Source of the DNA: a bacterium
Lineage (GTDB): Bacteria > Patescibacteriota > Microgenomatia > Levybacterales > UBA12049
NCBI GenBank assembly: GCA_021777565.1
Contig: JAJYDJ010000003.1
Coordinates: 65,001 to 129,000 of the forward strand
Length of the DNA: 64,000 bases
Direction: 5' to 3'
Made by a program: the position numbers and the translations under genes. Shown in pieces: positions 6,989 through 26,978 of this stretch (its first letter is position 1; every line of letters begins with the position of its first letter). A model generated the notes under the pieces. The model did no database searches and was not told the DNA's origin. It was given only the letters and a program-made list of their open reading frames with translations.

Positions 6989-7003
6989 TACCAGATACTT
7001 ATA

Positions 7004-7591: not shown

Positions 7592-7632
7592 ATATAAGAG
7601 CTATACTTAACTTCATTTATTTATGTAAAGTA

Positions 7633-7921: not shown

Positions 7922-8962
7922 ATGGAAAAAGGAAAACTAAATCGAAATAAAAATATGAATAAAATACTAAAAGTAGGCATTATAGGCATGGGTGAGCAGA
8001 TGACTGACAACCTGCTTCCTAGCATATTACTCAATAACTCTGTCATCATAGATAGTGTATGTGATATTGATAAAGAGAAATTGCATATAGCAGAATCAAA
8101 ATATAACGTAGTTGGATGCCAGTCTTATCAAGAAATGCTTACTACTAGAGAACTCGATTGTATTGTAGTGGCATCAACACCCCAAGTTCACGAAGCTGTT
8201 ATACAGTTATCAATTGACAAAGGTATCCCTATCTTTGTCGAGAAACCTCCATTCGTTGATATATCTAGCCTAACTCATATCATGAGTGACCCTAAAGCAA
8301 AAGATTTAATAAGTGGGGTTGGCATTAATTTTAGTTACACTGACAGTTTATTAATTCTCAAGGAATTACTGAATGAAAAAAAGTTTGGCAATATTTTGTA
8401 TTGGAATATTAATCATCTTGCTAATAAACCAACGGAGGCGCTGTGGGGGCTAAATAGCGTACCTCAATCATTTTTGCTCGCGCAAGCGATTCACCCTTTG
8501 GCATTTATATTAAGCTTTGGTGATAATTATAAAATCAAAAGTATTGATTATAGCCAGTTTGCTGATCAACTTCTGTTAAATTTAAATTTAGATATAAATC
8601 GTAATGGAAAGTCCTTTGTTGCAAATATTACATCAGGAACTTGTTCCCCGCACTTTGAGTGGAATATGGAGATTATTACTGACCAAGGGAAAATATTACG
8701 AATCAATTCACTGTGGGAATTGGAGTTGCTAGATGCTGGGAAAAAAACAGATCTCGTTAAAAATACTAAAAGATGGAAAGACGTATGGCATCCAAGTCCT
8801 GTTGGAAATGGTCTAAAAAGGACAGGTTATTATCATGAGCTTTCATCTTTTTTTGATAGCGTAAGGGAAAATAAGACATTTTATCCTAACCTTTCTAATA
8901 TGTTTGCGGTATATACACTCATTGATCAAATAAGTAAAAACATAACTGTAAAATATGTATAA
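7922..8962 (+). CDS. Gfo/Idh/MocA-family NAD(P)-dependent sugar oxidoreductase
   Basis: The N-terminal Rossmann motif is KVGIIGMGE. The EKP motif is present (FVEKPP). An alternative start lies at M12 (MNKILKVG). Confidence 0.7.
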   Translation: MEKGKLNRNKNMNKILKVGIIGMGEQMTDNLLPSILLNNSVIIDSVCDIDKEKLHIAESKYNVVGCQSYQEMLTTRELDCIVVASTPQVHEAVIQLSIDKGIPIFVEKPPFVDISSLTHIMSDPKAKDLISGVGINFSYTDSLLILKELLNEKKFGNILYWNINHLANKPTEALWGLNSVPQSFLLAQAIHPLAFILSFGDNYKIKSIDYSQFADQLLLNLNLDINRNGKSFVANITSGTCSPHFEWNMEIITDQGKILRINSLWELELLDAGKKTDLVKNTKRWKDVWHPSPVGNGLKRTGYYHELSSFFDSVRENKTFYPNLSNMFAVYTLIDQISKNITVKYV

Positions 8963-10091
8963 ACTTGAAAATAAATTCGTAAGTATTAACGCTGAAGATA
9001 TTCAATCTGTGACTGATTCTCTGAGGCAAAAACAGCTTGCTGGGACAGCAGATGTTGTAAAAACCTATGAGCAAAAACTGTCTGAATATTTTGCAGCCAA
9101 ATATGCCCATGCATGCAATTCTGGTACTGCTGGGATTGAGCTTATTCTTAGAGCTCTTGGCGTAGACGAGAACAGTGAAGTTTTATTGCCACCGACGGGT
9201 CCTGTGATGTGTGTATTGCCGATAATAGCAATTGGAGCAAAACCAGTTTTTGTCGATGTAGATTCATCATCTACTTTTGGTATTGATATTGAGGATTTGC
9301 AAAGAAAAATAACAAAAAAAACAAAAGCTCTTCTTGTAGTCCCCATGTGGGGATACCCAATCGAGATGAGTGAAATCAGAAAGATATGCCAAGAAAAACG
9401 AATTATTCTTATTGAAGACGCCTCACACTGTCACGGCAGTAAACTAGGAGAGCACTATGTTGGGACTCTTGCTGATCTTTCTATTTTTAGTACTCAAGAA
9501 AGAAAACTTGTCACGACAGGAGAAGGAGGATTTGTACTTACCAACACGCCTGAGATCAGTCAAGTAGTACAAGAAATGAGGAACTTCGGTAGGGCAACAA
9601 CAAATGTTGCATATTTTGATAGAAAAGTAGATGATTTTGGCGTACGTTTTGGCCTTAATTTTAGGCTTAGTGCAACAAATGCAGCTCTAGGGATATCCCA
9701 GCTAGAGAAATTGGATAATAAGATTAAACAAAGAACTCGAAATGCAGAATACATACGAGAGTCCTTGAATAATTGTAAAGACATTGAAGAAATACCAATT
9801 CTCTCTCATGCAATACCTAATTATTACTCAATAGTTTTTAAGATAAAAAATATGACAAACAACGCTGTGTTTGGGAAATATCTAGACGAGCATGGAATTA
9901 TATCTGACACATATAGATTTAACTATATGCCGCTATATCAAATGCCACTCTTTAGTTCATATGTTTCTTCATGTCCCAATGCAGAATCTGTAACAAAATC
10001 AATCTTTACGTTGCCGACACATGAAGGACTAATCCAGAAAGATTTAGATCATATTATTTCAACTGTAAAAGATTTTTATGCAAATACTTAA
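8955..10091 (+). CDS. DegT/DnrJ/EryC1/StrS-family PLP-dependent sugar aminotransferase
   Basis: Family-typical N-terminus. The Lys-containing segment IEDASHCHGSKLG matches the DAAHA.G.K PLP-binding-Lys region. It overlaps its upstream neighbour by 8 nt. Confidence 0.85.
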   Translation: MYKLENKFVSINAEDIQSVTDSLRQKQLAGTADVVKTYEQKLSEYFAAKYAHACNSGTAGIELILRALGVDENSEVLLPPTGPVMCVLPIIAIGAKPVFVDVDSSSTFGIDIEDLQRKITKKTKALLVVPMWGYPIEMSEIRKICQEKRIILIEDASHCHGSKLGEHYVGTLADLSIFSTQERKLVTTGEGGFVLTNTPEISQVVQEMRNFGRATTNVAYFDRKVDDFGVRFGLNFRLSATNAALGISQLEKLDNKIKQRTRNAEYIRESLNNCKDIEEIPILSHAIPNYYSIVFKIKNMTNNAVFGKYLDEHGIISDTYRFNYMPLYQMPLFSSYVSSCPNAESVTKSIFTLPTHEGLIQKDLDHIISTVKDFYANT

Positions 10092-10581
10092 TAACTTGTT
10101 ATTGCCTGAGAAGTTCTGCAAACATGAGAGGCATATTACTGTTTCAGGCTACATCTTTAACAAAAGTCTAACAAAGGTAGTTTTACTTCATCACAAGAAA
10201 CTACACAAATGGATGGCTGCTGGTGGACATATTGAGGTAAATGAGTTACCGCATGAGGCTATTTCACGAGAGATTAAAGAAGAGGTAGGAGTTGAAGCGG
10301 ATTTTATTGATTCTATGATTGCTGCTAAGTTCGATTCTGTAAATGAGTGGAAGATGCCTTCGCCATATTTTGCCATGATGCAAGTAATCCCTGAAACAAA
10401 AACAAATCCCGAGCATTTACATTACGACTATAGCTATATACTCGTTGCACGCACAAAGAAATTGAATCCTAAACCAGATGAGTCACAAAAAGTTCAATGG
10501 TTCTCTTTACCTGAAGTGCTAAAACTGGAAACATTCCCTATTGTGCCAAAAATTTGTAAAGCGATACTTTCAAAAAAATAA
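10078..10581 (+). CDS. NUDIX hydrolase
   Basis: The Nudix box GGHIEVNELPHEAISREIKEEVGVEA matches GX5EX7REUXEEXGU. Confidence 0.8.
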   Translation: MQILNNLLLPEKFCKHERHITVSGYIFNKSLTKVVLLHHKKLHKWMAAGGHIEVNELPHEAISREIKEEVGVEADFIDSMIAAKFDSVNEWKMPSPYFAMMQVIPETKTNPEHLHYDYSYILVARTKKLNPKPDESQKVQWFSLPEVLKLETFPIVPKICKAILSKK

Positions 10582-10582
10582 T

Positions 10583-12187
10583 ATGAATAACTTACCTCTT
10601 AATTATTCTGATATGTATATAGGGATTGTCTTGACTGCGACTTCAATAGTTTTGGCTCGAGGCATTATGAATCTCTATAAGATAATTGATAATATCTCCT
10701 GGCTTAAAAAGACACATTATTCATCTGACGATTATAAAATCGTAAAGGATTTTCCACCAATCATTATCTGCATACCCATGTTACGGGAACAAAGGACAGC
10801 AAAATCAACAATCGAGTATTTCTCTAGTCTAGAGTATGCTAAAAAAGATTATCAACTTGTTATTGTAACCACTGAGAAAGAGCGGTATGACAAGGATGTT
10901 TACAAAAAAAGATTACCTCAGATATATGCAGACTTAAAACAGGGCATTTCTTTAGCAAGCTTTGTAGATAGGTATCTTGGCGTATTTTCTGAAGCAGAAC
11001 TCGTACATCTATTCCAAGCAAAAGATAAGGGAATTTCCTTGAAAGAAATAACTGAAAAATTTAATCAAATTCCCAGTACTGAAGATATTGCTCAAGAAGA
11101 AGCTAAAAGAATTAATAAAAAAGTGGGATTCGAGCTAATAAAAGTACTCCACTACCCCAAGAATCATAGAACTGTTAGTGAACAGATTAATTATGCGATT
11201 GATTATTATAGAGACATAAAAAGATACGAGAGGGGATATTTTGCATTATATAATGCCGATTCACGTCCAAGTTTAACAATTTTATATGATGCGCTTGTTA
11301 CAAAGGCTAACTTTGAAAGGAAATATAACTATTCTCCTCAAGTCATGCAACAATCTTCACTGTTTACATTAAACTATGGTATGTTTAAGAACAATCTCAA
11401 TGGATTCTTGTTGAAAGCATCAGCATTATTCCAAACAAAATGGACGCTTACCCATGAGTTTTCTATCCTCCGAAGCCAATCAGATACAGCAATGAAAATA
11501 AAGAAGGTAACAAATCCACTTGCGAAAATTTGGTATTCACGTCTAGGTATTTGCATTACGCATGGATTGTTCTTGAGTATGAAACTTATTAAAACACAAT
11601 ATATGCCTACCGACACAGTAACTGAAGACCTGCCATTGGGTTACTATTTATCCTGTCTTAATGAACCAATCGTACCAATACCATCAATTGAGAATTCAGA
11701 ATCCCCAGTTACATTAGGAAGTCTCTTTAATCAAAAAAAAGTTTGGTTCTGGCCATACTTACAATATGAGCAATGCAAAAGGAGAGTATTGAAACACTCT
11801 CTCTATCAATCAACGATATCAGTATATCTCATTACCTTTCAAGGCCAATTAAGAGGATTAACATGGCTACTACAGTCACCAATACTAATACTTTCTTTTT
11901 TGGGTCTTGTCATGTTTAATCACTGGCAAGTAATAGAATTCTCTCTCCTTGCGATAATAATATATTGGTTCATACCTATTTATATTGTTTTGAAACAACT
12001 CAACAGTCTAGAAAATGAGTCAGGCAAAGGTCTCACCACACTGAGTTCTAGAGATTATATCTATACACCCCTCTCTGGGCTTCTCGTTCTTGCTTCCCAC
12101 TCCTATGGCCCTATACTTACTTGCATTGATTACCTCAAAGAGATTCTGTTTGGAAAGGTATACGTTAAGCAAAAAACAGAAAGATAA
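10583..12187 (+). CDS. polytopic membrane protein with GT-A (family-2-like) glycosyltransferase domain
   Basis: It has an N-terminal TM segment. PPIIICIPMLREQ...YQLVIVT resembles the GT2 N-terminal beta-strand/DXD region. The C-terminal third has multiple TM helices. The start is moved to ATG 10583, just after the NUDIX stop. Confidence 0.45.
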   Translation: MNNLPLNYSDMYIGIVLTATSIVLARGIMNLYKIIDNISWLKKTHYSSDDYKIVKDFPPIIICIPMLREQRTAKSTIEYFSSLEYAKKDYQLVIVTTEKERYDKDVYKKRLPQIYADLKQGISLASFVDRYLGVFSEAELVHLFQAKDKGISLKEITEKFNQIPSTEDIAQEEAKRINKKVGFELIKVLHYPKNHRTVSEQINYAIDYYRDIKRYERGYFALYNADSRPSLTILYDALVTKANFERKYNYSPQVMQQSSLFTLNYGMFKNNLNGFLLKASALFQTKWTLTHEFSILRSQSDTAMKIKKVTNPLAKIWYSRLGICITHGLFLSMKLIKTQYMPTDTVTEDLPLGYYLSCLNEPIVPIPSIENSESPVTLGSLFNQKKVWFWPYLQYEQCKRRVLKHSLYQSTISVYLITFQGQLRGLTWLLQSPILILSFLGLVMFNHWQVIEFSLLAIIIYWFIPIYIVLKQLNSLENESGKGLTTLSSRDYIYTPLSGLLVLASHSYGPILTCIDYLKEILFGKVYVKQKTER

Positions 12188-12192
12188 AACAT

Positions 12193-12897
12193 ATGGCTGA
12201 AATACATATCGCAACTATTGATGGGACTAGCTTTGCAGGGAAAACAACTCTACTTGAGGGCATCTCTCATGCAAATTCAAACATACAAAGGATTGAGGAA
12301 TACGATGCGTATGCTGGCGGCTTTATAAATTTCCCTGATTTTCCCCCAACAGATGAACAAGCAGCAAGAGATGGGATAGATTGTATTGTTCGATTAGACC
12401 AAATGCGTACTCCTGATATCAGAAGGAAAAGCGCAGATGGAGCCATTGTTGTTACTGATCGTTCTGTTCTCTCGTGCATTCTTTTTCAAGACACTGTCAG
12501 AAGGTTGATGCCACATATCCCAAATGCATACCAATACTGCTTAGAAGCATTTTTAAGGGCCCATGATGCAGGAGAAGTTATTTTCCCAAACTCACTCATA
12601 TATTTGGAGGCTGTCAATGTTGAAACATTTAATAAACGTGTTGGCAGAAGAGGACGTACTCCGATAGACTTTCTATCAAGCGAGGAGGCTTATTACTTTA
12701 CTAGAGAATGGTTTTCAAAACTCATTTCTCAGCATTATGCTACAGATAATAGTATCTTATTACAATCTGAAGATGGTAGACTAGATGAACTGGTTGCAAA
12801 TGCAATGGCATTTCTCCAAAACTCTAGTTACCAAGGAGATACTCGTCTCATGTTGGAGACATTGCTTGCGAATTGCAACAGATTGGAGCTAAGTTAA
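12193..12897 (+). CDS. P-loop nucleoside/nucleotide kinase (deoxynucleoside kinase / dNMP kinase-like)
   Basis: Walker A is IDGTSFAGKTT (compare dNK IEGNIGSGKTT). The DRS motif is present (VVTDRSVLS). Confidence 0.6.
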   Translation: MAEIHIATIDGTSFAGKTTLLEGISHANSNIQRIEEYDAYAGGFINFPDFPPTDEQAARDGIDCIVRLDQMRTPDIRRKSADGAIVVTDRSVLSCILFQDTVRRLMPHIPNAYQYCLEAFLRAHDAGEVIFPNSLIYLEAVNVETFNKRVGRRGRTPIDFLSSEEAYYFTREWFSKLISQHYATDNSILLQSEDGRLDELVANAMAFLQNSSYQGDTRLMLETLLANCNRLELS

Positions 12898-13529
12898 TGA
12901 TTACACCAAAAATCATCTTTATTGACTGGAATAAAACACTCTCATACTCATTGTTTTGGGAGCAATTGCAGACAGAAGAACATAGATATCATCCTTATGG
13001 TGATCAGATCATCCATTCGCTTTTCAATATTGACTTGAATCTTATAAACGACTGGATGCTTGGAAAGCATACAACAGAAGATGTATGTAATTTTATATCT
13101 GAACATGTAAAACTTCCAGCAAATATAATTCAACAGGAGCTTATTGTAAGTTGTCAGCATATGAAGTTTATTGACAAAGTGATACCTAGATTACTCACAA
13201 AAATACGCAAGAAAGGGATACGAGTAGTGATTGCGACAGACAATATGGATACGTTCCGTCGATTTACTATGCCAGCTCTAAAGTTAGAAGAACATTTTGA
13301 CGATTTTCTCATATCTTCCGAGTTAGGTGTGTTCAAATACACGTTTACTGATGATAAAATACCATTCTTTGATACCTATCTACAAGCCTATAACGCAACA
13401 TATCAAGATGTAGCTCTACTCGATGACAGTCCTGAGCAAACAGGAACATACGAAAAGAAAGGATTTGTTATTCGAGATGTACAGGATAAGAGTGATCTTA
13501 TAAGGTATTTAAAAGAATATGCTGCTTAA
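12897..13529 (+). CDS. HAD-superfamily hydrolase (phosphatase/nucleotidase-like)
   Basis: Motif I-like IIFIDWNKTL. Later conserved acidic motifs are VVIATDN and ALLDDSPEQ. The start ATG 12897 overlaps the upstream stop (TAATG). Confidence 0.5.
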   Translation: MITPKIIFIDWNKTLSYSLFWEQLQTEEHRYHPYGDQIIHSLFNIDLNLINDWMLGKHTTEDVCNFISEHVKLPANIIQQELIVSCQHMKFIDKVIPRLLTKIRKKGIRVVIATDNMDTFRRFTMPALKLEEHFDDFLISSELGVFKYTFTDDKIPFFDTYLQAYNATYQDVALLDDSPEQTGTYEKKGFVIRDVQDKSDLIRYLKEYAA

Positions 13530-14226
13530 TTTGATTTTCCACCATATTTCAACAACGCCATTATCTGATGATCATTGGGCTATTACACCAGAAAAATATT
13601 GGTCAGTTATTGATATGATAAATCAATTAATAAAAACCCAAAAAGTTCCATATGAAGATTATCGAATATATTTTGACGATGGATACAGTTCGTTCTATGA
13701 TTTTATTTACAAAGATATTCCTGAGAAAGAATTATCTCGATATACATTGGCTATTGTGACTGACGATGTAGATACTCCAAACCATATGACTCTCCAGCAG
13801 TTAAAAGAGATTCATGAGACAGGTATACACATGTCCTCTCATGGAGTTTCACATGCTTCTATAGCTATCTATATTGATAATGTTATACAAACTACTCCCC
13901 TGGGGGGCATCTATCAAAACTGTCCTTGGGGGCAAGGAAAAGCATTAAGCGAGAGAGAGGTTTTATATCAACTCCAGGAATCCAAAAAATTCCTTGAAAA
14001 ATATTTTGGAATAATTGATGAATTTGTATTTCCCTTTGGGATTTATAACAATCAGGTAATCGCACTGAATGATAAATACGGTTTATATAGATACATGTCC
14101 ACATGTGATGAAGTTCTTGACCATGGACAGTTTCTAAGACCACGATACCTAATATATAACACAAAAAGTATGGAGCAAATTAAAGACGAATTAATGAACA
14201 TTAAAAATCAATATGAACTACTGTAA
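13519..14226 (+). CDS. polysaccharide deacetylase (CE4/NodB domain)
   Basis: The FDDGY metal-binding motif is present, together with MTLQQLKEIHETGIHMSSHGVSH (HxxH-type motif). Confidence 0.7.
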   Translation: MLLNLIFHHISTTPLSDDHWAITPEKYWSVIDMINQLIKTQKVPYEDYRIYFDDGYSSFYDFIYKDIPEKELSRYTLAIVTDDVDTPNHMTLQQLKEIHETGIHMSSHGVSHASIAIYIDNVIQTTPLGGIYQNCPWGQGKALSEREVLYQLQESKKFLEKYFGIIDEFVFPFGIYNNQVIALNDKYGLYRYMSTCDEVLDHGQFLRPRYLIYNTKSMEQIKDELMNIKNQYELL

Positions 14227-14244
14227 TAAGATTAAATAACTTGT

Positions 14245-14907
14245 ATGGATGAATACTTAATGAAACTCAAGACTAAGGTAGATGTAATGTTTGCCAATGA
14301 AAAAAGTGGGCATGATATTGCACACTTAGAGAGAGTCATGAGACTAGCATTACACATTCAAAAAGAAGAAGGTGGGGATAGACTTATTATCGGCATTTCT
14401 GCATATTTACATGATATACATAGACTTCTTGAAAATAGAGAGCATAAATTTTTCTCTCCAAAAATGTCACTACCAATAGTAAAAGATCTATTAAAATCCG
14501 TAGACTTCCCTGACAGAGAGATCAGTAAAGTTCTCCATTGTATTGAGTTTCACGAGGAGTATGATTTCACCCCACAAGGAAAAACAGTATCAGATCTAGA
14601 GACCCTCATCTTGCAGGATGCAGATAATCTCGATGCAATGGGGGCAATTGGTATTGCAAGAGCATTTATGTACGCAGGACATCATGGTGCGGTTATGTGG
14701 AATCCAGAAGTACCTCTAAATCCTGAAGCTTTATTTGAAGATGCTAAATCATTAGATGACGCATCCACTATACATCATTTCTATCATAATATACTCAAAC
14801 TGTGTGACAACATGAACACCTCGACAGCCAAATCTATTGCAAAAGATAGGCAGGAATTTACGCAAGAGTACATAGAAAGATTTTTTACTGAGTGGGATTT
14901 CATTTAA
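14245..14907 (+). CDS. HD-domain phosphohydrolase (YfbR-like 5'-deoxynucleotidase family candidate)
   Basis: HDIAHLERV...LHDIHR...LQDADNLD gives the H...HD...D metal-ligand pattern of HD hydrolases. Confidence 0.7.
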   Translation: MDEYLMKLKTKVDVMFANEKSGHDIAHLERVMRLALHIQKEEGGDRLIIGISAYLHDIHRLLENREHKFFSPKMSLPIVKDLLKSVDFPDREISKVLHCIEFHEEYDFTPQGKTVSDLETLILQDADNLDAMGAIGIARAFMYAGHHGAVMWNPEVPLNPEALFEDAKSLDDASTIHHFYHNILKLCDNMNTSTAKSIAKDRQEFTQEYIERFFTEWDFI

Positions 14908-14974
14908 TTCCACATTTTGAGACATAGTCCAGGTATAAGTAATTTACTTACCTGTAAGAAATAAATCTAAACGG

Positions 14975-15982
14975 ATGAATAAGCTTTATCATAAAAACAC
15001 ACTTGGTTATCATGTTTTATCTCACGATAATAATTATCCACTTAATATACTAAAACTATCAAATCCAACAGGCCTTACATCTCTATCAATCGTTATACTT
15101 TACTTTGAAGCAGTACAGACAATTAACTTAGTTCTTGAACATTTACTAAAATCCGTTAATAAAATAAAAAAACAAGTTGATAAAACTTGGGATGTTGAAG
15201 TCATCTTGATTGACGATGGATCTACAACTTATACTGCCAAGGAAACAATACACCCAGACTATTTATCTCAAATTAAAGTAGTGAGACACGCTGTAAATAG
15301 GGGTCGATGTATAGCAAGAAATACAGGTATCAGATCGGCAAGAAAAGAGTTACTACTCTTCTTAGATGCAGATATACTGGTAAATGAAACAATTTTATTG
15401 AATCATATGAGGATACATAACGATATTCGGAAGTATGATGATAATGCTATATCCGTTTCGCTATTCAATTTTGTACAAAAAGATATACTTGATAGAACAA
15501 AAGACCTCTCAGTACTTTTTAAAAAAACCAACGACTTTAGAGATGATTGCACATACCAAGAAAAGTGGATAGGATGTGAGGAAGATAAGGAGTTTGCCAA
15601 TCAAAGATTTAGGATTATGAAAGATACACATTATTTACAGAAATGGCCTTTATCAGGCTCTGTTGGACCTTGGATAATGACAAATATGGTTTTGGGGGGA
15701 GCGTTTATGGTAGATCGAAAACTAGCACAACTTGTAAATGGCTGTGATTATCTTTTTGTTGAATATGGATTTGAGGAAACTTCTCTTGCAACGAAACTAA
15801 TTGTTTATTGTGGTTCTTATATAATCCCTGAAACTTCGGCATACCCTATTCACATAATATGTGAGCAAGGAGAGAAAAACAGGCCTGAGAAAAACACTCT
15901 ATTTAGAAAAGCCCATGACCTATATTTTAATAAGTTTTTAAAGAGGAAAATCAATGAAAATGTAATCTTTGATACAGATTGA
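14975..15982 (+). CDS. family 2 glycosyltransferase (GT-A)
   Basis: VILIDDGSTT...RHAVNRGRCIARNTGIRSA...LLFLDADI gives the typical GT2 DXD and catalytic region. Confidence 0.7.
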   Translation: MNKLYHKNTLGYHVLSHDNNYPLNILKLSNPTGLTSLSIVILYFEAVQTINLVLEHLLKSVNKIKKQVDKTWDVEVILIDDGSTTYTAKETIHPDYLSQIKVVRHAVNRGRCIARNTGIRSARKELLLFLDADILVNETILLNHMRIHNDIRKYDDNAISVSLFNFVQKDILDRTKDLSVLFKKTNDFRDDCTYQEKWIGCEEDKEFANQRFRIMKDTHYLQKWPLSGSVGPWIMTNMVLGGAFMVDRKLAQLVNGCDYLFVEYGFEETSLATKLIVYCGSYIIPETSAYPIHIICEQGEKNRPEKNTLFRKAHDLYFNKFLKRKINENVIFDTD

Positions 15983-16365: not shown

Positions 16366-17646
16366 ATGAAACTTATTCTTGTATTTGCAATTATTTCTGT
16401 TATTCTTTTTAGTGTTCCGTCACCTATTTTCGCAGATACTCCCACCCCTACTCCTATACCCACACAGATACCTCAAGAAGCGACTAATGCACTAGGGAAC
16501 TCCCTCAACGGCTTTTTTTCAGGATTTGATTGGATTGCCGATGGCCTTATCTTCAACACACCTGATGTCACGCGTGATACTATCACACTGAGAGATGGTA
16601 CATCACTTGGAGGAATTAGTCAGTACAAAAATATATTTTATGATATAGCCATTCCAATTTTTGCCATTATTTTGGCAGCAAGTGCATTGCTGCATATTGC
16701 CAATGATGACAAGTATCAACTTGTGAATTTCCTGAAACGACTTGCCTTTGTGGCTATATTATTCATCCTTGCTCCCTATATACTTTCCTACAGTATCCAA
16801 TTCATTAACTTGCTTGATACACAAATACAACAACTACAAGTACTCAATTTAGTTACCTTCCTTACAGAATATGTACAAAGTGGTGATTTTAATAGTTTAC
16901 TTAAATTCAGTAGTAGCCCCCTATTATTTTTCTCCCCCACAGTCCTCTTACAGATGCTTATTATCATCATTTCTATGGGATTTCTCCTCCTAGGGTTTCT
17001 CTATATTGTTTTCCAGGCAGTAACACGCTTCGTAGCATTACTGATCCTTACTGTCTTAATGCCTATTGCTATTCCTTTTGCCCTTTCAGAGAAAACACAA
17101 AATATAACAAACAATTATTTCCGTACGTGGTTTACCTTTCTTATTCAACAGCCTGCATTCGTATTAGGATTTGCGCTCATCACTACTATTTTTGGTAACC
17201 TCTTGAAAGCACATTCATCAAGCATTGGGACACTTTTCCTCTATGCAGGATCACTCATCTTTTTAGGCGGTGTGAATGTCTTCATTGCGCGTATCTTCGG
17301 TAGTGGCTGGGAACTTATGACGATAAACAGTCAAAGTATGTTTGCCGCTGGAATGATTACAGGATTTGGTATGTCATCACTCAACAAATTTAAAGATGGA
17401 GCACTTACAGGAAAGGAAACTGGCATACGAAACCAAGTTGGTGCAACATTTGGACGAACCATGGGCTTTCTTATCATGGACAGAAAGAACTACTCAGAAA
17501 ATAGTGGAATTCCTCACCATGAACAATCTTCTCGAGGTGAGACATTTATAAATAGGCATGGCTATTTTGCTCACAAATCAGGGCAAAGACCAAATATAAC
17601 TTGGGAAAAGCCAAAAGCAAAGAAGGGGACAAATGAAGAGCGTTAG
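16366..17646 (+). CDS. VirB6/TrbL-like polytopic membrane protein
   Basis: A signal peptide is followed by a Thr-Pro-rich linker. There are at least 5 TM helices, and the protein is 426 aa. This is the usual architecture and position of VirB6-family proteins upstream of VirB4. Confidence 0.5.
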   Translation: MKLILVFAIISVILFSVPSPIFADTPTPTPIPTQIPQEATNALGNSLNGFFSGFDWIADGLIFNTPDVTRDTITLRDGTSLGGISQYKNIFYDIAIPIFAIILAASALLHIANDDKYQLVNFLKRLAFVAILFILAPYILSYSIQFINLLDTQIQQLQVLNLVTFLTEYVQSGDFNSLLKFSSSPLLFFSPTVLLQMLIIIISMGFLLLGFLYIVFQAVTRFVALLILTVLMPIAIPFALSEKTQNITNNYFRTWFTFLIQQPAFVLGFALITTIFGNLLKAHSSSIGTLFLYAGSLIFLGGVNVFIARIFGSGWELMTINSQSMFAAGMITGFGMSSLNKFKDGALTGKETGIRNQVGATFGRTMGFLIMDRKNYSENSGIPHHEQSSRGETFINRHGYFAHKSGQRPNITWEKPKAKKGTNEER

Positions 17647-18442
17647 GATATATAAGGATAATTTACGAGAACATATTTTGCGTTCTCTCTTTTTTAGTAA
17701 TAACGTCATCTTTCTCGGTGCAGGAATTGTTATTGCAGTAGTGACATTTCTGATCTTTCACTTTGTACTCCACTCATTCCAAATTGGCCTTTTTGTTATG
17801 ACTGTTTTTACTTCAGAGATATGTCTCGCTCTTATCACCACTATTCAGATAGAAAATCAGACAATTGTTTCACTCATTCCTCGCGTATGTGGGTTTGCAA
17901 CGACAAAAAAACAATATGAAATGAAGGATTTAGATGCGAGCACATCGAATTTCACCATTATTGGAAATGCAATAAAACACAAACAGGAACTTATTGCTAT
18001 TTTCGAGATACAGCCATATGATATTGCTCTTTTGAATGAAGAAGATCGAGACCACTTTTATCATCAAGTAAAGATGATGTTACATACACTACCTAAGCAC
18101 GTGCAGCTCATTGTACGAAAAGAGACCGCGAAAGTATCTGATTATCACAATCACTTCTTCTCCATGTATAAAGGTGCCGAGAAAAAACAAGAGAAGCTCA
18201 TAGCTCAATATGTTAATGACATATCAAGTCTTGTGGAAACAGGCAAGTTTCAAATCATGAAATATTATGCTGTCTTCTCTGCACCACTCCCAACTGACAA
18301 AGAAACGCATTTTGTTGATGCTCAGAAGAGTCTACATGATCAAAGTATTCGATTCATTACCTCACTAGGAGCACTACATATCAATGTGACACAACTGCAA
18401 AAAGAAGATTTAATTGCATATTGTAAATCACAATTACAGTAG
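17633..18442 (+). CDS. membrane-anchored T4SS accessory protein (VirB3/VirB8-like candidate)
   Basis: There are two N-terminal TM helices followed by a soluble domain. It overlaps VirB4 by 29 nt, suggesting an operon. No diagnostic motif. Confidence 0.35.
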   Translation: MKSVRIYKDNLREHILRSLFFSNNVIFLGAGIVIAVVTFLIFHFVLHSFQIGLFVMTVFTSEICLALITTIQIENQTIVSLIPRVCGFATTKKQYEMKDLDASTSNFTIIGNAIKHKQELIAIFEIQPYDIALLNEEDRDHFYHQVKMMLHTLPKHVQLIVRKETAKVSDYHNHFFSMYKGAEKKQEKLIAQYVNDISSLVETGKFQIMKYYAVFSAPLPTDKETHFVDAQKSLHDQSIRFITSLGALHINVTQLQKEDLIAYCKSQLQ

Positions 18443-20603
18443 ACTTATGAGAAAGAAAGATATTGCACCAATAAGATTATTAAAAAGCCCTTTTGGGGCA
18501 TATAGAAATCGACGAATCGTTGGTGATATAAAATCTGAGATTAAAGAGATCTTGCGTAAAAAATCGTTAGCTGAGAAAGGACTCGCGAGTGAAAGAAGCA
18601 AATTCTCTCAATTGAAAGCGAAAACGGAACATCTATACGATATTTATTCTGGCCTTGAAGCATTGAAACAGCTACATAAGCTTCCTCCTCAAAAGGCAGA
18701 GAACAAAGCTATAGAAATATTAAAGGCTGAAATTAAGCGCCTTGAAGCATTAGTGACACTCCAAAGAGAAGAATTAACCAAGAATTTTTATGAAAATCCT
18801 CTTCTCGGGATCCACAAGCCTGTATTTGAGAGATCATACAATCCTATACGTTTCGTTACCAATCTTGTTCACTATAACAAAGAAAAACAAATCTATAACA
18901 AAGTCGTAAACGAGTCAAAGCACGCTGAATACAACAATATCATTGGAAAAGAAGCTAATCATATTCATGTCTCAAATAATGGCACCAGACAATATAAAAG
19001 CGAACAACTGATTGAGAAACAGCAATACATTGAACTTGGAGATAAACTTGTTGCAACGTACTATCTTGCTGATATTCCCGCATATTTAAACCCGTATTCA
19101 TTTTTCAAACTCATTAGCTCATCTCTTCCTTTTACTATCAGCATGTTTATTAAACCAACAGTAAATAGTTCACTCATTAAAATTGCACGTCAGCGATTAT
19201 CTGTGCTTGAGATGCAACAAAAAGAACGTGTGAATAAAGGCAAATTACGTGATGTTGAAACAGATAAACATATTGAGGAAACTTCTGCCTTCCTTGAAGA
19301 CTTAGTGCATGAGCTCGAGAGAGGTATTGAATATAGACTCTTTCTGTCCTTAGAAGCAAAAGATAAAGATGAACTCAAAAGATTACACAAGGAATTACGT
19401 AATGTCGCTGATGCTATGGAGTTTTCCTTTGCACGGTTCTTATATGGGCAGAAAAAGGCATTTGAAGCAACATTACCATTCAATACAAATCTCTTCGTTC
19501 ATAATCGTGTTATCCAGTCATCGGGAGCCGCCTATCTTATGCCATTTATTACAAAACAAATTCACGATCCTGAGGGTGTGTTTCTTGGAATTAATGCATA
19601 TTACGATAGTTTGGTATTTCTGAATCCATCTAGTGTAAGAAATAGCAATGTAAACATTCTAGGAGTATCAGGAGCAGGTAAATCTGTAACTGCGAAAGCA
19701 TTAGCAACACGACTGTATACTCGAGGGACACAAGTCATTATTATTGATCCCGAAGGCGAATATGTTGAATTTGCCAAGGCACTTGGGGGAGAAGTAGTTC
19801 AGTTCTCACGAAAAAATGGTATCAATCCATTCTCACTACGTAGCAAGGAAGAAGATGCTATCTTAGACCATGTAACTATCCTTAAAACGTTCTTCAAATC
19901 ATTCATCCCCGATGACACCTATGATAGCGCCGTACTTGATCAAGTTCTTGTATCGCTGTATAAGAATAGTGAACCAACATTCGAAAATTTCCTCAAATCA
20001 CTCCAGAAAGACCCCATGCACAAATACCTTAATGTGCTCAGTGAAGGCAGCTTACAAGGCATCTTTAACGCAAAACGAGAATTAGAGCTTACTAACGATC
20101 TTATTGTCTTTGATATTTCTCCACTCGGAGACACCGAGAAGAAGGCACCAGCAATGTATCTTCTTACAAGCCTCATTTGGCAACTAGTGAATAAGAAAAG
20201 TGATCGTAAACGAATGTTATTCATAGATGAAGCACATAAATTACTCAAAGACCGTGAAGTAGCAATTTTTTACAGGGAAATGGTTAAACAGGCAAGAAAA
20301 AGAAATTTAGGTGTGGTATCTATTACCCAGGATGTTGAGGATTTTCTTCATGGAGAGTTCGGAAAAGCAATTATCACCAATTCTGAAACAAAGATATTTC
20401 TCAAACAGTCATATGCTACTCTCAATCTCCTCAAGGATATTTTTCCTATGACACAGGAAGAGAGACAACAGTTGGGAAACTTGAATATTGGAGAAATGAT
20501 CCTCTTTCGAGAAAATGAACACATGAGAGTAGATTTTATGGTACTTCCTCACGAAGAACCATTTATCTTCCCCAAAACATATGCAGAAAATTCATCAGAG
20601 TAA
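18414..20603 (+). CDS. VirB4/TrbE/CagE-family type IV secretion ATPase
   Basis: Walker A is ILGVSGAGKSVTAKAL. IIIDPEGEY is present. Walker B is MLFIDEAHKLL. The protein is 729 aa. Confidence 0.9.
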   Translation: MHIVNHNYSRLMRKKDIAPIRLLKSPFGAYRNRRIVGDIKSEIKEILRKKSLAEKGLASERSKFSQLKAKTEHLYDIYSGLEALKQLHKLPPQKAENKAIEILKAEIKRLEALVTLQREELTKNFYENPLLGIHKPVFERSYNPIRFVTNLVHYNKEKQIYNKVVNESKHAEYNNIIGKEANHIHVSNNGTRQYKSEQLIEKQQYIELGDKLVATYYLADIPAYLNPYSFFKLISSSLPFTISMFIKPTVNSSLIKIARQRLSVLEMQQKERVNKGKLRDVETDKHIEETSAFLEDLVHELERGIEYRLFLSLEAKDKDELKRLHKELRNVADAMEFSFARFLYGQKKAFEATLPFNTNLFVHNRVIQSSGAAYLMPFITKQIHDPEGVFLGINAYYDSLVFLNPSSVRNSNVNILGVSGAGKSVTAKALATRLYTRGTQVIIIDPEGEYVEFAKALGGEVVQFSRKNGINPFSLRSKEEDAILDHVTILKTFFKSFIPDDTYDSAVLDQVLVSLYKNSEPTFENFLKSLQKDPMHKYLNVLSEGSLQGIFNAKRELELTNDLIVFDISPLGDTEKKAPAMYLLTSLIWQLVNKKSDRKRMLFIDEAHKLLKDREVAIFYREMVKQARKRNLGVVSITQDVEDFLHGEFGKAIITNSETKIFLKQSYATLNLLKDIFPMTQEERQQLGNLNIGEMILFRENEHMRVDFMVLPHEEPFIFPKTYAENSSE

Positions 20604-21339
20604 TCACTTCACAGAAATCGTCTCAGTTATAGATGGTCCCCTACAAGCGATCCTTAATAGCTTAGTACGCATTTTTCTCACGATGTTCCTCCCTTTCCCT
20701 ATTCCAGATGAAATTATCATGGAGCTCAGAGCATCAATACTCCAAATTCTTTTTATATTACTTCTTGTTCTTATTCTCACTGTCGTCAGCCTTATTGGCA
20801 TTTTCACTCTTCCATTAACACACCAAGTCACGACAATTGCTCCAGCAAGCGATAGCTCTTTCTCTGGGACAGATGTACCGTTTCAGAACCCATTAGGGGG
20901 AATTGGACTATCTTTTGTGCGTATTACTGCATACTTCCATGATAGTGACTATTACGCTCAATTTGGATTATGGCATGAAGGAGTAGATTTCGTACCATCT
21001 GACGCATATTACAAACAAAGTACAGCATATAATGCTCCTAAGAACGTTAATCATGACATTGATGTTTTCTCAACAATTAATGGTGTGGTAACTTATTATC
21101 AGGACCAATACGGATCACACACTATTGAGGTTTTAAACAATGAAGGGACACTAAAGGTTATATTTATGCATTTGAACGACGTATTTGTGAGTACAGGACA
21201 GTCCATAACTGCCGGAACACCGGTGGGAACCATGGGAGATACAGGCTTCTCAACAGGAGAACATTTACATTACCAAATAGATATAAGTAATAATGATTCA
21301 TGGACACCCATTGATCCTTTGGGATATATAAAACAATGA
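20581..21339 (+). CDS. M23-family metallopeptidase (cell-wall hydrolase of the transfer apparatus); start uncertain
   Basis: GTMGDTGFSTGEHLHYQI matches the M23 HxH region, with the HxxxD region further upstream. There is an N-terminal TM segment. An internal Met at ~20719 is a plausible start. Confidence 0.8.
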   Translation: MQKIHQSNHFTEIVSVIDGPLQAILNSLVRIFLTMFLPFPIPDEIIMELRASILQILFILLLVLILTVVSLIGIFTLPLTHQVTTIAPASDSSFSGTDVPFQNPLGGIGLSFVRITAYFHDSDYYAQFGLWHEGVDFVPSDAYYKQSTAYNAPKNVNHDIDVFSTINGVVTYYQDQYGSHTIEVLNNEGTLKVIFMHLNDVFVSTGQSITAGTPVGTMGDTGFSTGEHLHYQIDISNNDSWTPIDPLGYIKQ

Positions 21340-22483: not shown

Positions 22484-22539
22484 TTATATGGCACAAAATA
22501 CTTGCGGCTTTTTTTCCAAAACTAGTATATAATCTTTTT

Positions 22540-23652
22540 ATGAGAAGCTTTGTGGCTAACAATTTAACTTTTACCTCAATACTATCAAATGCACCTAAAT
22601 TAGTGTCTCTTTTTTCTGGCTGCGGTGGATTAGACCTTGGATTCAAGATGGCAGGATATGAAATAGTTTGGGCAAATGATTTTGATCATTGGTCGTGTGA
22701 GACTTATAAAAGAAATTTTGGTGACCATATTTTAGAAGGAGATATTACTAAAATAAATTTTGATGAAATTCCTGACGCAGATATCATAACTGGTGGATTT
22801 CCATGTCAAGATTTCTCCATGATATGGAAGCGTGAAGGCTTAGGGACAGAAAGAGGCAATCTATATACTTACTTCGTTAAAGCAGTTAAAACAAAAATGC
22901 CAAAAGTTTTTGTAGCAGAGAATGTAAAGGGGTTGTTAACAGCTAATGGAGGAAAAGCTATACAACAAATTGTAAATGATTTTGCAAAATTAGGGTATAA
23001 GATAAATATTGATCTATATAACTTTGCCGAGTATGGAGCACCCCAACTGAGAGAGAGAGTACTAATTGTTGGTGTTAGATCTGATTTGGAATTTTCATTT
23101 AAAAAACCAGAGCCTTTGAGGAATAGTTGGAATTATATGACAGCTGGGGAAGCCCTCTTAGGGGTAGAGAAAGTGAACTACAACAATGAACATCAGAATA
23201 TAAAAGAGAAAACAAAAGAGATGCTTAAGTTAATTCCAGAAGGTGGTAACTTCAGCTCAATTCCTAAAGATAGTCCATATTACGTAAAAGGCATGATTAG
23301 TCACGTGTACCGAAGGCTCCACCGCAACAAGCCCTCTACAACTATTATTGCTGGTGGTGGTGGTGGGACATGGGGGTATCATTACGAAGAACCACGTCCG
23401 TTGACTAATAGAGAAAGAGCTCGTTTGTTTGGTTACCCAGATAATTTTGTGTTCGAAGGATCAATAAGTGAAGTTCGTCATCAAATTGGTAATTCTGTCC
23501 CTCCTATTGCCGCTAAAGTTGTTGCACAGCAATTGCTCCCAGCATTCGAAGCAAATTCTATTGTTGTAGTAAATTCAAAGAATGAAGTTGATTATACTCA
23601 AAAAATTGAAAGTACTTTGAATCTAAAACAATTTACGTTTGCGTTAGGATAA
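22540..23652 (+). CDS. DNA (cytosine-5)-methyltransferase
   Basis: Motif I is LFSGCGGLDLGF. Motif IV is GGFPCQDFS. Motif VI is ENVKGL. Motif X is QIGNSVPP. Confidence 0.9.
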   Translation: MRSFVANNLTFTSILSNAPKLVSLFSGCGGLDLGFKMAGYEIVWANDFDHWSCETYKRNFGDHILEGDITKINFDEIPDADIITGGFPCQDFSMIWKREGLGTERGNLYTYFVKAVKTKMPKVFVAENVKGLLTANGGKAIQQIVNDFAKLGYKINIDLYNFAEYGAPQLRERVLIVGVRSDLEFSFKKPEPLRNSWNYMTAGEALLGVEKVNYNNEHQNIKEKTKEMLKLIPEGGNFSSIPKDSPYYVKGMISHVYRRLHRNKPSTTIIAGGGGGTWGYHYEEPRPLTNRERARLFGYPDNFVFEGSISEVRHQIGNSVPPIAAKVVAQQLLPAFEANSIVVVNSKNEVDYTQKIESTLNLKQFTFALG

Positions 23653-23654
23653 TT

Positions 23655-24713
23655 ATGGCACTTTTATTTTCTAATTTTCCACCACTAAGAACATCTTATC
23701 CTACATATTCTTCCATTTTTAAAGAAAATTTGCAGGTATCAGAAAAGGTGAAAATTGCAACAGGGTATATCTCGTCAGATTCTGCAATAGATTTGAAGCG
23801 CATTATAGAAGACAACAATGGGCCTCATGTTGAGTTATGTGTTGGGATGCAATATTTTGATGGGTTGAACCCAGCTCAAAAAGATGCTTTAGAAAGTTTA
23901 AATACTTCACTGCAAAACAATAACTTAGGAAGAGTATATATGGTAACAACATTCCCATTTCATGGAAAGGTTGTATCCTTTTCAAGGAAAGACACTGTAA
24001 CCTGTTCTATCATCGGATCGTCAAACTTATCAAATATAATTGATGACTGTAGGCAATATGAAGCTGATTATCTATTCAATCAATGCAAGGAGTCTGATGA
24101 ACTCGATCAATTTATCAAAAAATTAATAACAGTCTCGTCACAACCCTTAGAAGGGCTTCAATTAAAGATCATCGAGCCAAATAATGATCTTCTTGCTAAT
24201 CAAATGGGGGTACAGAAATTGACTCTTAAAGATGTACAAAATGCTATGCAGAACCTATCAGATCTAAAATTTCAAATTCCATTAAAAGGCAATGAAGCTC
24301 CCAAAAGTAGCCTTAATCCTTTTTTCGGAGAGGGGAGAAAGAATATTCAAGGATTCATTATACCTCGGCCTTGGTATGAAGTTGAACTTATTGTTCCTAA
24401 GTCAATCACACAATCTGATGGATATCCTAATTCAAAAATTACTCAGGACAATTCATTTCCAGTAATTACGGATGATGGATGGTCATTTCAATGTAAAGTA
24501 AGTGGCGATTACAGCAAGAACTTTCGTTCATGTAATGATTTAAAGATTCTAGGCAAATGGATAAAGGGAAGACTTGAAAACGCTGGAGCATTAAAACCAG
24601 GAGAACTTGTAACAGATACGACTTTTTATAAATATGGACGATCAAGTATCGATTTTACTAGAATAAAAAATTCTGAGAGTTGGTATTTGGATTTTGGAGT
24701 TAATAATGGATAA
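23655..24713 (+). CDS. PLD-superfamily nuclease, candidate restriction endonuclease (NgoFVII/BfiI-like)
   Basis: FHGKVVSF...IIGSSNLSN resembles the PLD HxK...GSxN signature. The size (352 aa) matches BfiI-type enzymes. It starts 3 nt after the MTase stop. Confidence 0.45.
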   Translation: MALLFSNFPPLRTSYPTYSSIFKENLQVSEKVKIATGYISSDSAIDLKRIIEDNNGPHVELCVGMQYFDGLNPAQKDALESLNTSLQNNNLGRVYMVTTFPFHGKVVSFSRKDTVTCSIIGSSNLSNIIDDCRQYEADYLFNQCKESDELDQFIKKLITVSSQPLEGLQLKIIEPNNDLLANQMGVQKLTLKDVQNAMQNLSDLKFQIPLKGNEAPKSSLNPFFGEGRKNIQGFIIPRPWYEVELIVPKSITQSDGYPNSKITQDNSFPVITDDGWSFQCKVSGDYSKNFRSCNDLKILGKWIKGRLENAGALKPGELVTDTTFYKYGRSSIDFTRIKNSESWYLDFGVNNG

Positions 24714-26598
24714 TCACCTTACAAATTATCTTAAAATACTTGAGCAAACATCTTCAGATGCTGTATTGTCAGTAAAAAATACCGTAGAGAAAATTATTCC
24801 AGAACATATAGAATCATTTACACATAAGGAACATATTAGAGGTTTACTGTTAGGGCAAGTGCAAAGCGGTAAAACAAGTCAAATGCTCGGTATTATCGCT
24901 GCTACAGCTGATATAGACAATGGTTTCAAAATATTTGTTCTTCTTACAACCGATAATACTGCTTTACAGCAACAAACTCTGAAAAGAGCACTTGCCTCCA
25001 TGGACACATTCAATGTATGTGATGAGCACGATGAGATGCGCTTTATGGAAGGTGGTATTCGTAAACCATCTTTAATTGTTCTGAAGAAAAATTCGAGTAT
25101 CCTAAAAACGTGGAGGAATATTCTAGGTTCATCGGAACTCAATAAAGGTCGACCAATATTCTTGGTTGATGATGAAGCTGACGCTGCTAGTCTTAATACA
25201 CTAGTTAACAAACAAGAACAAAGTGCAATTAATACACATTTAGAGGCCATATTAAAACTTTTTACAAGTAGTGTTTATCTACAGGTAACGGCAACCCCCC
25301 AATCATTGTTTTTACAAACCGAAGAATCTGGTTGGAAACCTTCATTCGTACACTACTTTCCTCCAGGTAAAAATTATTTAGGCGGGAACTTTTTTTATAC
25401 AAAACCAAAACCATTTACAAACAGATTTACTCAAGATGATGAACTACAAGTCCTCTTAAGAGAGAAATTCATTGCCGATGGACTTAAGCTTGCCATAGAA
25501 AACTTCCTTATAACCTCATCACATCTTACATTGGGGTCTGAATCAAGTGTTTGTAACTTTCTAGTACATCCTAGTGTAAAAATTGACGATCATGAAAAGA
25601 TTAAATCAAAAGTCGTTGACTATCTCAATTATATATTCTCATCTCTTGATTCCAAAGACGTTATTTCTAGACTTAAACATGCGTGGGATGATCTGAAAAC
25701 ATCAAAGCCAGATCTTATTGCATTCGAAGATATTGTGAGTTTTTTGGCAACAAAACCAGAAATAACTGTTATTACAATGAACTCTGGACCAAAGAGTGAT
25801 GCACATTTGACCTATGATGAAGGTCTCAATATTGTTATTGGAGGAAATAGTTTAGGAAGAGGGGTCACATTCAAATGCCTTCAAACAGTTTATTATTGTC
25901 GATCTTCTAAAATACCTCAGGCAGATACTTTCTGGCAACATAGCAGAATGTTTGGTTATGATAGAGACCCTTTACTTATGAGAGTTTTTATGCCACAAGC
26001 GTTATTTAATATGTTCTCAGAGATCAATGATTCAAATGAGATTCTTATCAAGCAAATTGAAGAGAACAAGTTTGATGAAATTCAAATAGTAACTAGTAAT
26101 AAAATTAAACCTACTAGGAAAAATGTTATAGATCAAGATAGATATAATTATCTCGTAGGGGGTGTTAATTACTTTCCACCATATCCTGATCAAGACAACC
26201 TTGCTCTTATGGATAACATTCTGAATAATTTTGATTCAACGAAGAAAGTACATGATATAACAATCGATGATTTGGTGAAAATAGTTTCTAACCTAAAATC
26301 TGATCTATCAAATAGCTGGTCGATTGAATCATTTGTAAATGCATTACTTGCTGTAAAAGCTCAGAGAGGTACTCCTAACCTGGCAAAGCTTATTATCAGA
26401 AGAGACAGAGATATTGGATATGGGACAGGTACTATGCTATCCCCTGATGATAGACAACTAGGAAATGATATTGAGAACCTTCCTGTAATTACTTTCTATA
26501 GGATTAATGGGCAAAAGGAGAAAAACTGGCAAGGACATCCATTCTGGATGCCTAATATAAAACTTCCAATAGGGAAGGTTTTCCATAGAGTGGATTAG
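24694..26598 (+). CDS. Z1-domain P-loop ATPase (R-M-associated)
   Basis: GLLLGQVQSGKTSQMLG is the Z1-type Walker A. A DEAD-like LVDDEAD is present. It overlaps the nuclease gene by 20 nt. Confidence 0.5.
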   Translation: MELIMDNHLTNYLKILEQTSSDAVLSVKNTVEKIIPEHIESFTHKEHIRGLLLGQVQSGKTSQMLGIIAATADIDNGFKIFVLLTTDNTALQQQTLKRALASMDTFNVCDEHDEMRFMEGGIRKPSLIVLKKNSSILKTWRNILGSSELNKGRPIFLVDDEADAASLNTLVNKQEQSAINTHLEAILKLFTSSVYLQVTATPQSLFLQTEESGWKPSFVHYFPPGKNYLGGNFFYTKPKPFTNRFTQDDELQVLLREKFIADGLKLAIENFLITSSHLTLGSESSVCNFLVHPSVKIDDHEKIKSKVVDYLNYIFSSLDSKDVISRLKHAWDDLKTSKPDLIAFEDIVSFLATKPEITVITMNSGPKSDAHLTYDEGLNIVIGGNSLGRGVTFKCLQTVYYCRSSKIPQADTFWQHSRMFGYDRDPLLMRVFMPQALFNMFSEINDSNEILIKQIEENKFDEIQIVTSNKIKPTRKNVIDQDRYNYLVGGVNYFPPYPDQDNLALMDNILNNFDSTKKVHDITIDDLVKIVSNLKSDLSNSWSIESFVNALLAVKAQRGTPNLAKLIIRRDRDIGYGTGTMLSPDDRQLGNDIENLPVITFYRINGQKEKNWQGHPFWMPNIKLPIGKVFHRVD

Positions 26599-26633: not shown

Positions 26634-26978
26634 TCAGTTTCTACTCTCAATTCTAGTCCTTATTCTCGCCCTATTCTGCTCATGTTCAGCAACTACCTCC
26701 TTATATTGATCCTCTCCTCCCATAACTGCGGCTAGATATAGCATACCAAAGTCAATTCCATACTTTGCAGTATAGTAACCACCAAGTTCAGCGAAAGGAC
26801 TAAGCTTTTCCTTACCACCTTTTGTCTCCTTCTGAACTTTCTTTATAAATTCTACATCTTCTGGTGGAACTTGCCCAATAAAGGCCAATTCAACAAGATT
26901 GATCTGATTTTGGGTTAACACAATCTTATCTTCAGATAAAATCTCAATATCGTTCATTTTGTTTTTCATTGACTTCAT
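26634..26978 (-). CDS. hypothetical protein
   Basis: 114-aa ORF, convergent with the R-M block. It is the last gene before the AT-rich gap that precedes the core chromosome genes. Confidence 0.4.
   Translation of the reverse strand: MKSMKNKMNDIEILSEDKIVLTQNQINLVELAFIGQVPPEDVEFIKKVQKETKGGKEKLSPFAELGGYYTAKYGIDFGMLYLAAVMGGEDQYKEVVAEHEQNRARIRTRIESRN

Follow-up and report, generated by a model that had tools for sequence, protein, structure and literature searches.

A probable CglI/NgoAVII-type ATP-dependent restriction-modification operon with a conserved GCGGC in its promoter, at the edge of a candidate conjugative island in a Patescibacteriota genome

In a 64,000-nucleotide stretch of DNA from a bacterium of the phylum Patescibacteriota (Microgenomatia; Levybacterales; UBA12049; GenBank assembly GCA_021777565.1, contig JAJYDJ010000003.1, positions 65,001 to 129,000), hereafter the window, three adjacent genes encode a C5 cytosine DNA methyltransferase (M), a nuclease with a PLD and a B3-like domain (R), and a helicase-like ATPase/translocase subunit with a DEAD-Z1-C architecture (H, also called N). 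The trio is very probably a CglI/NgoAVII-type ATP-dependent restriction-modification operon, and apparently an intact but divergent member of a class that has already been worked out in four papers in Nucleic Acids Research between 2014 and 2018 (PMC4267653, PMC4267654, PMC5737866, PMC5861437). We establish here its gene content and order, its domain architecture, the presence of the catalytic, clamp and motor residues, the orthology to the prototypes and the movement of the three genes as a cassette. The initial annotation of the locus had proposed a three-gene restriction-modification unit consisting of a C5 methyltransferase, a PLD nuclease and a Z1 ATPase, and the family matches bear this out far beyond chance. 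Its view that a combination of Z1 and PLD nuclease is poorly characterised does not hold, as the class has been studied both biochemically and structurally in the four papers cited above. Of the two modes of action that it had left open, the ATP-dependent type-II-like one is judged correct, and the methylation-dependent one is taken up below.

The three genes are co-directional and their open reading frames (ORFs) were all confirmed from the ORF list at the coordinates in Table 1, with the start of H revised. An overlap of stop and start codons had been annotated directly after the methyltransferase gene, but M and R are separated by a 2-nt gap (TAA-TT-ATG), and R and H form the only overlapping gene pair, in which the ATG at 24706 overlaps the R stop by 8 nt (ATGGATAA) and is preceded by GGAG 7 nt upstream. 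We consider this ATG a more likely start for H than the TTG at 24694, and thus a product of 630 aa more likely than the annotated 634 aa, because the gene call made independently for the 953-kb source contig starts at the ATG and the alignments of H homologues begin at residues 5-8. Residue numbers of H are nevertheless given from the TTG start throughout. A consensus promoter and terminator scan found no convincing terminator after H. A convergent ORF of 114 aa (26634-26978) was ruled out as a controller or partner of the system, having neither a family match nor a homologue in the 80 related loci described below.

The product of M is a Dcm-type methyltransferase, as first annotated, and matches PF00145 (E=5.7e-82) and TIGR00675 (E=6e-76) in profile searches as well as, end to end, the PADLOC model MTase_II (E=6e-118), one of the REBASE-derived PADLOC models used in this work. 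Its motifs can be read directly as FSGCGG (residues 25-30), PCQ (88-90), ENV (127-129), QLRER (169-173) and GNSV (317-320). Across 72 M homologues, F25, G27, G29 and G30 of the FxGxGG motif, the whole of PCQ and ENV, R171 and R173, and G317, N318 and V320 of GNSV are invariant. Identity to M.NgoAVII amounts to 60% overall and 63% in the variable region that contains the target recognition domain (TRD).

For R, the expected BfiI/NgoFVII-like architecture with an HxK...GSxN signature was recovered in full: the protein matches the NgoFVII families PF09565 (PLD domain, E=1.5e-26) and PF20731 (C-terminal B3-like domain, E=9e-37), its match to the generic PLDc_2 family stays below threshold, and the PADLOC model REase_II fits from end to end (E=6e-91). 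The crystal structure of R.NgoAVII (PDB 4rct) aligns over the full length (E=1.7e-73) with an identity of 42.6%, which breaks down into 31% for the PLD domain and 52% for the linker and B3 region, and a further match was obtained to PDB 4rd5 (E=5e-51). Active-site positions 104, 106, 124 and 137 of R.NgoAVII align to H103, K105, N124 and E136 of R, of which the first two lie in the motif HGK (103-105) and the third in GSSN (121-124); the clamp lysines K212 and K275 align to K211 and K281, the central-base-pair reader R285 to R291, and positions 241 and 243 to E242 and E244. For three of these positions the published text gives D124, D241 and D243 and the deposited 4rct sequence N, E and E; the sequence was followed here. 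R.NgoAVII has nine base-contacting residues, and those compared are the ones named in the text of the paper.

More than 1,400 R homologues exist in public data, and conservation of these residues was assessed in 70 that come from the related loci described below. In the closest clade all nine aligned residues, E244 among them, are invariant or nearly so. H103, K105, G121, S122 and N124 are conserved in all 70, which answers the question raised with the annotation of whether relatives keep the catalytic His and Lys of a nuclease fold. E242 and R291 are likewise present in 70/70, K211 in 69/70 and E136 in 66/70 (94%). The second clamp lysine, K281, is retained in 20/21 members of the closest clade, in 17 of the 49 distant relatives, and hence in 37/70 overall. 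R lacks the Asp expected from the generic HxK(x)4D motif and has S110 instead, and this position is variable across the 70 homologues; the 4rct alignment suggests that the prototype R.NgoAVII lacks it too.

The third gene product matches the Z1 family (PF10593, E=1.7e-31) and, over its full length, the PADLOC model Helicase_II (E=6e-204). The annotated P-loop and DEAD box are both present, as a Walker A variant with Gln or Asn in place of Gly (GQVQSGKT, residues 54-61) and as DDEAD (159-163), and are followed by TATP (motif III), the H/H motif HPSVKIDDH with H-x7-H spacing, a GRG containing the motif V Arg (R389) and a short QxxR motif VI (QHSR). Set and spacing are the same as in N.NgoAVII, with matching positions for G(Q/N)VQSGKT, DDEAD, TATP, H-x7-H and QHSR, and every feature by which the DEAD-Z1 motor was defined by Toliusis et al. 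(PMC5861437) is found in H. Among 70 homologues K60 is kept in 69, and D159, D160, E161, D163, H292, H300, R389, Q415 and R418 are kept in all. The last ~160 residues (473-633) match the C-terminal domain of H.CglI (PDB 6f1s, E=3.5e-18), including conserved N492, R572, W612 and P625, which correspond to the solitary conserved residues reported for H.CglI, so that this part of the protein can be assigned to the fold unique to CglI on the strength of the sequence match.

The scores also bear on whether the genes could instead be part of an MZA, Druantia or DISARM-like defence system rather than of a classical restriction-modification system. Weak and partial matches point that way (MzaC of NCBIfam at E=2e-23 and of PADLOC at E=2e-19 for H, and DruM and DrmMII for M). 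The MzaC match, however, scores 82 bits where the cut-off is 1500, and it covers the Z1 core only, whereas Helicase_II fits H from end to end and MTase_II outscores DruM (E ~1e-64) for M. No further genes of these systems, MzaA, MzaB, MzaD and MzaE included, flank the locus, and the neighbours are not conserved across loci. We therefore ruled out all three systems on scores and absent partner genes, and regard their probability as negligible.

NgoAVII of Neisseria gonorrhoeae FA1090 is one of the closest described systems. Its locus was reached by tblastn of plasmid records, in the N. gonorrhoeae record NZ_CP119142.1, and encodes proteins of 374 (M), 345 (R) and 629 aa (N) in the same order as here. 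This record and NZ_CP119140.1, both in PLSDB, are 2.17-Mb N. gonorrhoeae chromosomes filed as plasmids. The two systems share gene order, the PLD and B3-like architecture of R with the same catalytic and DNA-clamp residues, the DEAD-Z1-C architecture of N and H, and a methyltransferase that is 60% identical including the TRD; in contrast, R is only 40-43% identical (40% to the protein encoded in NZ_CP119142.1) and H 44%, the tip of the R N-arm differs, and the present operon probably lies on an island resembling an integrative conjugative element (ICE). With CglI of Corynebacterium glutamicum ATCC 13032, which is carried by prophage CGP3, the operon has in common the homologous C-domain of H, the unusual Walker A, the H/H motif, the motif V Arg and the QxxR motif VI, and probably also its location on a mobile element. 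The sequences are nevertheless divergent, and R2H2 stoichiometry, the translocation-collision mechanism and stress sensitivity have been established for CglI only. BceSIV/Bce14579I of Bacillus cereus belongs to the same family, combining a PLD nuclease with an ATPase in NTP-dependent cleavage. BfiI, a Type IIS enzyme of PLD and B3 domains, has a nuclease with the same two-domain fold, in which the PLD dimer forms a single active site, but it cuts alone without ATP or a motor, whereas H is always linked to R here.

Restriction genes frequently lose their function in reduced genomes, and the operon might likewise be decaying or silenced, with the methyltransferase as its one working part. The comparison with the prototypes makes this very unlikely: all three ORFs are of full length (370/374, 352/345 and 630/629 aa), frameshifts are absent, every catalytic and motor residue is intact, and the identical protein occurs on 6 contigs.

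Related loci were collected by scanning one genome per species with H as the query, which yielded 80 loci from Saccharibacteria (the closest, 54-73%), other members of the candidate phyla radiation (CPR), Omnitrophota, Bacteroidota, Legionella, Treponema, an archaeon and others. In 72 of them the three genes keep the order M, R, H on a single strand, so that the co-occurrence by which the initial annotation was to be judged is found in a large majority; of the eight exceptions, five are explained by contigs that break off within the cassette. A C5 methyltransferase is linked in all 75 loci with enough upstream DNA. None of the genes flanking the operon in the window is syntenic with the cassette in the other related loci, and this, together with the collinearity, indicates that the three genes travel as a unit. 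H homologues also turned up in 23 plasmid records, including 11 with a prediction of conjugative transfer, a count that is inflated by the two misfiled chromosomes mentioned above.

In the remaining three of the eight exceptions, from a Paludibacteraceae metagenome-assembled genome (MAG) and two Scalindua MAGs, a protein of 232-262 aa takes the place of the PLD-B3 nuclease between M and H (L042, 561-1259; L045, 4949-5737; L055, 4979-5752). A domain scan, which covered L045 and L055, found NOV_C/DUF3883 (PF13020, E ~1e-13), a PD-(D/E)xK-like domain, in both. This arrangement looks like a swap of the nuclease subunit on the same chassis of M and DEAD-Z1 motor.

Two further interpretations were considered. 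A stand-alone Type IIS enzyme of the BfiI type is improbable because H overlaps the R stop and is linked in all related loci and because R is orthologous to R.NgoAVII, a protein that is inactive on DNA without N (PMC4267653). A Type IV-like, methylation-dependent restriction, in which R and H would attack DNA carrying foreign methylation and the role of M would be unrelated, could draw on the occurrence of Z1 and SF2 (superfamily 2) ATPases in some modification-dependent systems, which is nothing specific to this locus. It conflicts with the full-length orthology of R to R.NgoAVII, which binds and cuts unmethylated GCCGC, with the conservation of the base-contacting R291, E242 and E244, and with a cognate methyltransferase that is never missing from loci with enough upstream DNA; nor did a domain search find a modified-base reader domain. 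The methylation-dependent option of the initial annotation is accordingly abandoned as extremely improbable.

As a CglI/NgoAVII-type system, the operon would be expected to work in the way described for the prototypes, from which we infer its stoichiometry, ATP dependence, cleavage position and recognition sequence. M would act independently and methylate C5 of the target cytosine, probably within GCSGC, and thereby protect the host genome. R and H would assemble into an R2H2 complex, in which the B3-like domains of R would read an unmethylated asymmetric site, probably 5'-GCCGC-3', and the PLD domains of two R subunits would dimerise to form one shared active site. Fuelled by ATP hydrolysis, the DEAD-Z1 motor of H would leave the site and run along the double-stranded DNA, mostly in the downstream direction, until the translocating complex rear-ends another one bound at a site and triggers the nuclease. 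The cut would fall at a fixed distance downstream of the site (GCCGC N7/N6-7), with one strand cut per complex and two complexes needed for a double-strand break. The R2H2 assembly, the need for ATP hydrolysis and one-dimensional translocation, and the fixed N6-7 cut are known from the prototypes (PMC4267653, PMC5737866), and the prototype R2H2 hydrolyses ~170 ATP per second per monomer (PMC4267653, PMC4267654, PMC5737866, PMC5861437).

GCSGC is likely to be the target of the system, as the site methylated by M, with GCCGC probably being the one cut by R. M.CglI and M.NgoAVII, with 62% identity to each other, share GCSGC as their target (PMC4267653). This specificity is favoured because the variable/TRD region of M is 63% identical to that of M.NgoAVII, because the base readers of R are invariant, and because GCGGC is fixed in the promoter of the operon, which lends the assignment independent support.

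The promoter GCGGC begins 36 nt upstream of the M start and is followed, after exactly 19 nt, by the -10 box TATAAT (Table 1). It is the sole GCSGC among the 33 of the window with a -10 box at a distance of 17-21 nt. In all 19 of the closest related loci, where M is 69-79% identical, an equally oriented GCGGC precedes M, with 18-19 nt between it and a downstream -10 box (TATAAT, TATACT or TACAAT); counting the window, 20/20 close loci keep this spacing. A second GCGGC occurs another 14-15 nt upstream in several of them. In an alignment of the 16 unique promoter sequences, column conservation is 100% for GCGGC and 95% for the -10 box, compared with 63% for the spacer and 49-57% for the flanks. 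The TT that would be needed for a TTG-containing -35 element is less conserved than GCGGC, which places the constraint on the site rather than on a canonical -35 hexamer. Only 6 nt separate the -10 box from the ATG of M and a Shine-Dalgarno sequence is not present, and the M mRNA may therefore be leaderless.

Lying in the -35 region, the GCGGC may allow the system to sense its own methylation state or to bind its own methyltransferase, and so to regulate its own expression, an interpretation of the promoter alignment to which we give nearly even chances. With chances slightly below even, within the clade centred on Saccharibacteria, a GCGGC 18-19 nt upstream of the -10 box could be a methylation- or methyltransferase-sensing switch for the whole M-R-H operon, possibly acting through a leaderless M mRNA, that would time establishment after conjugative transfer and then hold expression at a safe level. 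There is precedent in CfrBI and LlaDII, which likewise have their own recognition site inside the methyltransferase promoter, where it regulates and its methylation can tune expression (PMC3874152). In CfrBI, however, divergent M and R genes share the regulatory region, whereas here a single co-directional operon lies behind the site. Regulation through a self-site is not known from the CglI/NgoAVII class, whose prototype papers do not discuss promoters, and the conserved promoter site is a new detail.

The promoter GCGGC is missing from distant members of the family and from NgoAVII itself, whose M promoter differs in lacking any GCSGC site. Between a TATAAT-like box and the start of M.NgoAVII (~1670-1770 of the retrieved locus, L086), a long (TTGCG)n tract is found instead, which could be a phase-variation tract.

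Several points weigh against the interpretation developed so far. Activity, stoichiometry and recognition sequence are carried over from the prototypes by analogy. Although the N-arm of R is identical to that of NgoAVII at 25/36 positions, its tip, which reads the 3' half of the site in NgoAVII, differs (RRDKRGFVK vs RKNIQGFII in the prototype), so that the specificity of the nuclease could partly depart from GCCGC. A member of the same family, BceSIV, recognises GCWGC, although in the present system GCSGC is favoured by the promoter GCGGC and by a TRD resembling that of M.NgoAVII. The window shows no shortage of GCSGC (33 sites vs ~28 expected), and composition hence lends the specificity no independent support; no avoidance was seen in the window for either orientation (GCCGC 18 vs 13.6 and GCGGC 15 vs 14.6 expected from a Markov model). 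The consensus promoter scan, finally, did not list the M-R-H promoter, whose -35 region is non-canonical; the number of promoter-like sites in that scan equalled the shuffled expectation.

A separate compositional feature of the window is the rarity of CCGCC, which occurs 3 times against 11.6 (Markov) and 21.5 (zero-order) expected. Its reverse complement GGCGG is observed 15 times and is not under-represented, making this depletion strand-asymmetric.

Table 1. Coordinates in the window of the M-R-H operon, its promoter elements and the genes of the ICE-like island
Feature	Position	Strand	Remarks
Candidate cognate site GCGGC (bottom strand GCCGC)	22504-22508	+	Overlaps the promoter's -35 region
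-10 box TATAAT of the M-R-H promoter	22528-22533	+	Read from the sequence; column conservation among relatives
M, C5 cytosine DNA methyltransferase	22540-23652	+	370 aa; orthologue of M.NgoAVII/M.CglI (GCSGC)
R, PLD + B3-like nuclease	23655-24713	+	352 aa; PF09565 + PF20731; 4rct match
H (N), DEAD-Z1-C helicase-like ATPase/translocase subunit	24706-26598	+	630 aa from ATG
H, alternative start TTG 24694	24694-26598	+	634 aa
tRNA-Glu	347-421		Abuts large serine recombinase
Large serine recombinase	411-1925	-	Island
VirD4-like coupling protein	2554-5388		Island
MobC/Replic_Relax protein	5363-6148		Island
TrbC + TrbL (TrbL/VirB6)	16366-17646		Island
VirB4	18414-20603		Island
M23 peptidase	20581-21339		Island

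The operon lies close to the end of a region of low GC content (~0.35 from position 1 to ~27,000 of the window, 0.40-0.47 beyond). From 347 to ~27,000 this region has the appearance of an ICE-like island, with the tRNA-Glu, recombinase and conjugation genes of Table 1 as the hallmarks of such an element. We lean towards assigning the M-R-H operon to the island, at its far end: its own GC content of 0.34-0.36 is that of the island, and that of the genes downstream is 0.40-0.44. The annotated carriage by a mobile element is plausible in view of the ICE hallmarks and the shared low GC, but the right-hand boundary of the island was not found. A direct repeat of the tRNA-Glu 3' end that could serve as an att repeat was not detected downstream (the best match, a 14-mer, is at chance level), and no empty-site variant occurs among the contigs with an identical downstream DEAD-box helicase.

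This setting invites the alternative that the operon, with the same enzymology, is mainly an addiction module that stabilises the conjugative island by post-segregational killing, and not primarily a defence against phages. Such a selective role would fit a location at the end of a low-GC island with tRNA-Glu, serine recombinase and conjugation genes, the GC content that the operon shares with the island and not with the genes downstream, the presence of H homologues on plasmid records including conjugative ones, and the fact that CglI itself is prophage-borne. It is weakened by the missing island boundary, att repeat and empty site, and by the unrelated contexts in which the cassette occurs in other genomes; addiction and defence are, moreover, not mutually exclusive. 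On balance we hold addiction to be unlikely as the principal role of the CglI/NgoAVII-type operon, while giving it some weight.

Two other features of the island deserve mention. The VirB4 gene is apparently split: a 269-aa ORF (17633-18442) matches positions 14-272 of the 894-position ICE VirB4 model, and the ORF that overlaps it (18414-20603) carries the VirB4 ATPase part, which may be a true organisation in two genes or the result of a frameshift. Between the conjugation genes, a cargo cluster (6365-15982) encodes a short methanogen-type thymidylate-synthase-like protein (207 aa, under the curated cut-off), a weak dTMP-kinase-like ORF (12193-12897), a NUDIX protein, an HD hydrolase, an HAD-like protein, a polysaccharide deacetylase, a GFO/IDH/MocA oxidoreductase, a DegT aminotransferase and two glycosyltransferases. 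The cluster could serve nucleotide or DNA hypermodification, or simply the synthesis of surface glycans.

As a restriction system the operon adds little to what is known, since the class, its structures and its translocate-and-collide mechanism have already been published. The new points are modest and consist of the CPR host, the probable placement within an ICE-like island and a promoter with a conserved self-site. For the host lineage, the assignment predicts a 5-methylcytosine methylome at GCSGC and a restriction barrier, which would be relevant to the genetic manipulation of episymbionts that are hard to transform. The cassette can also be regarded as probable cargo of a candidate conjugative island, at whose edge it lies, and the conserved promoter site offers a simple, testable model of how a three-gene restriction operon may control itself.

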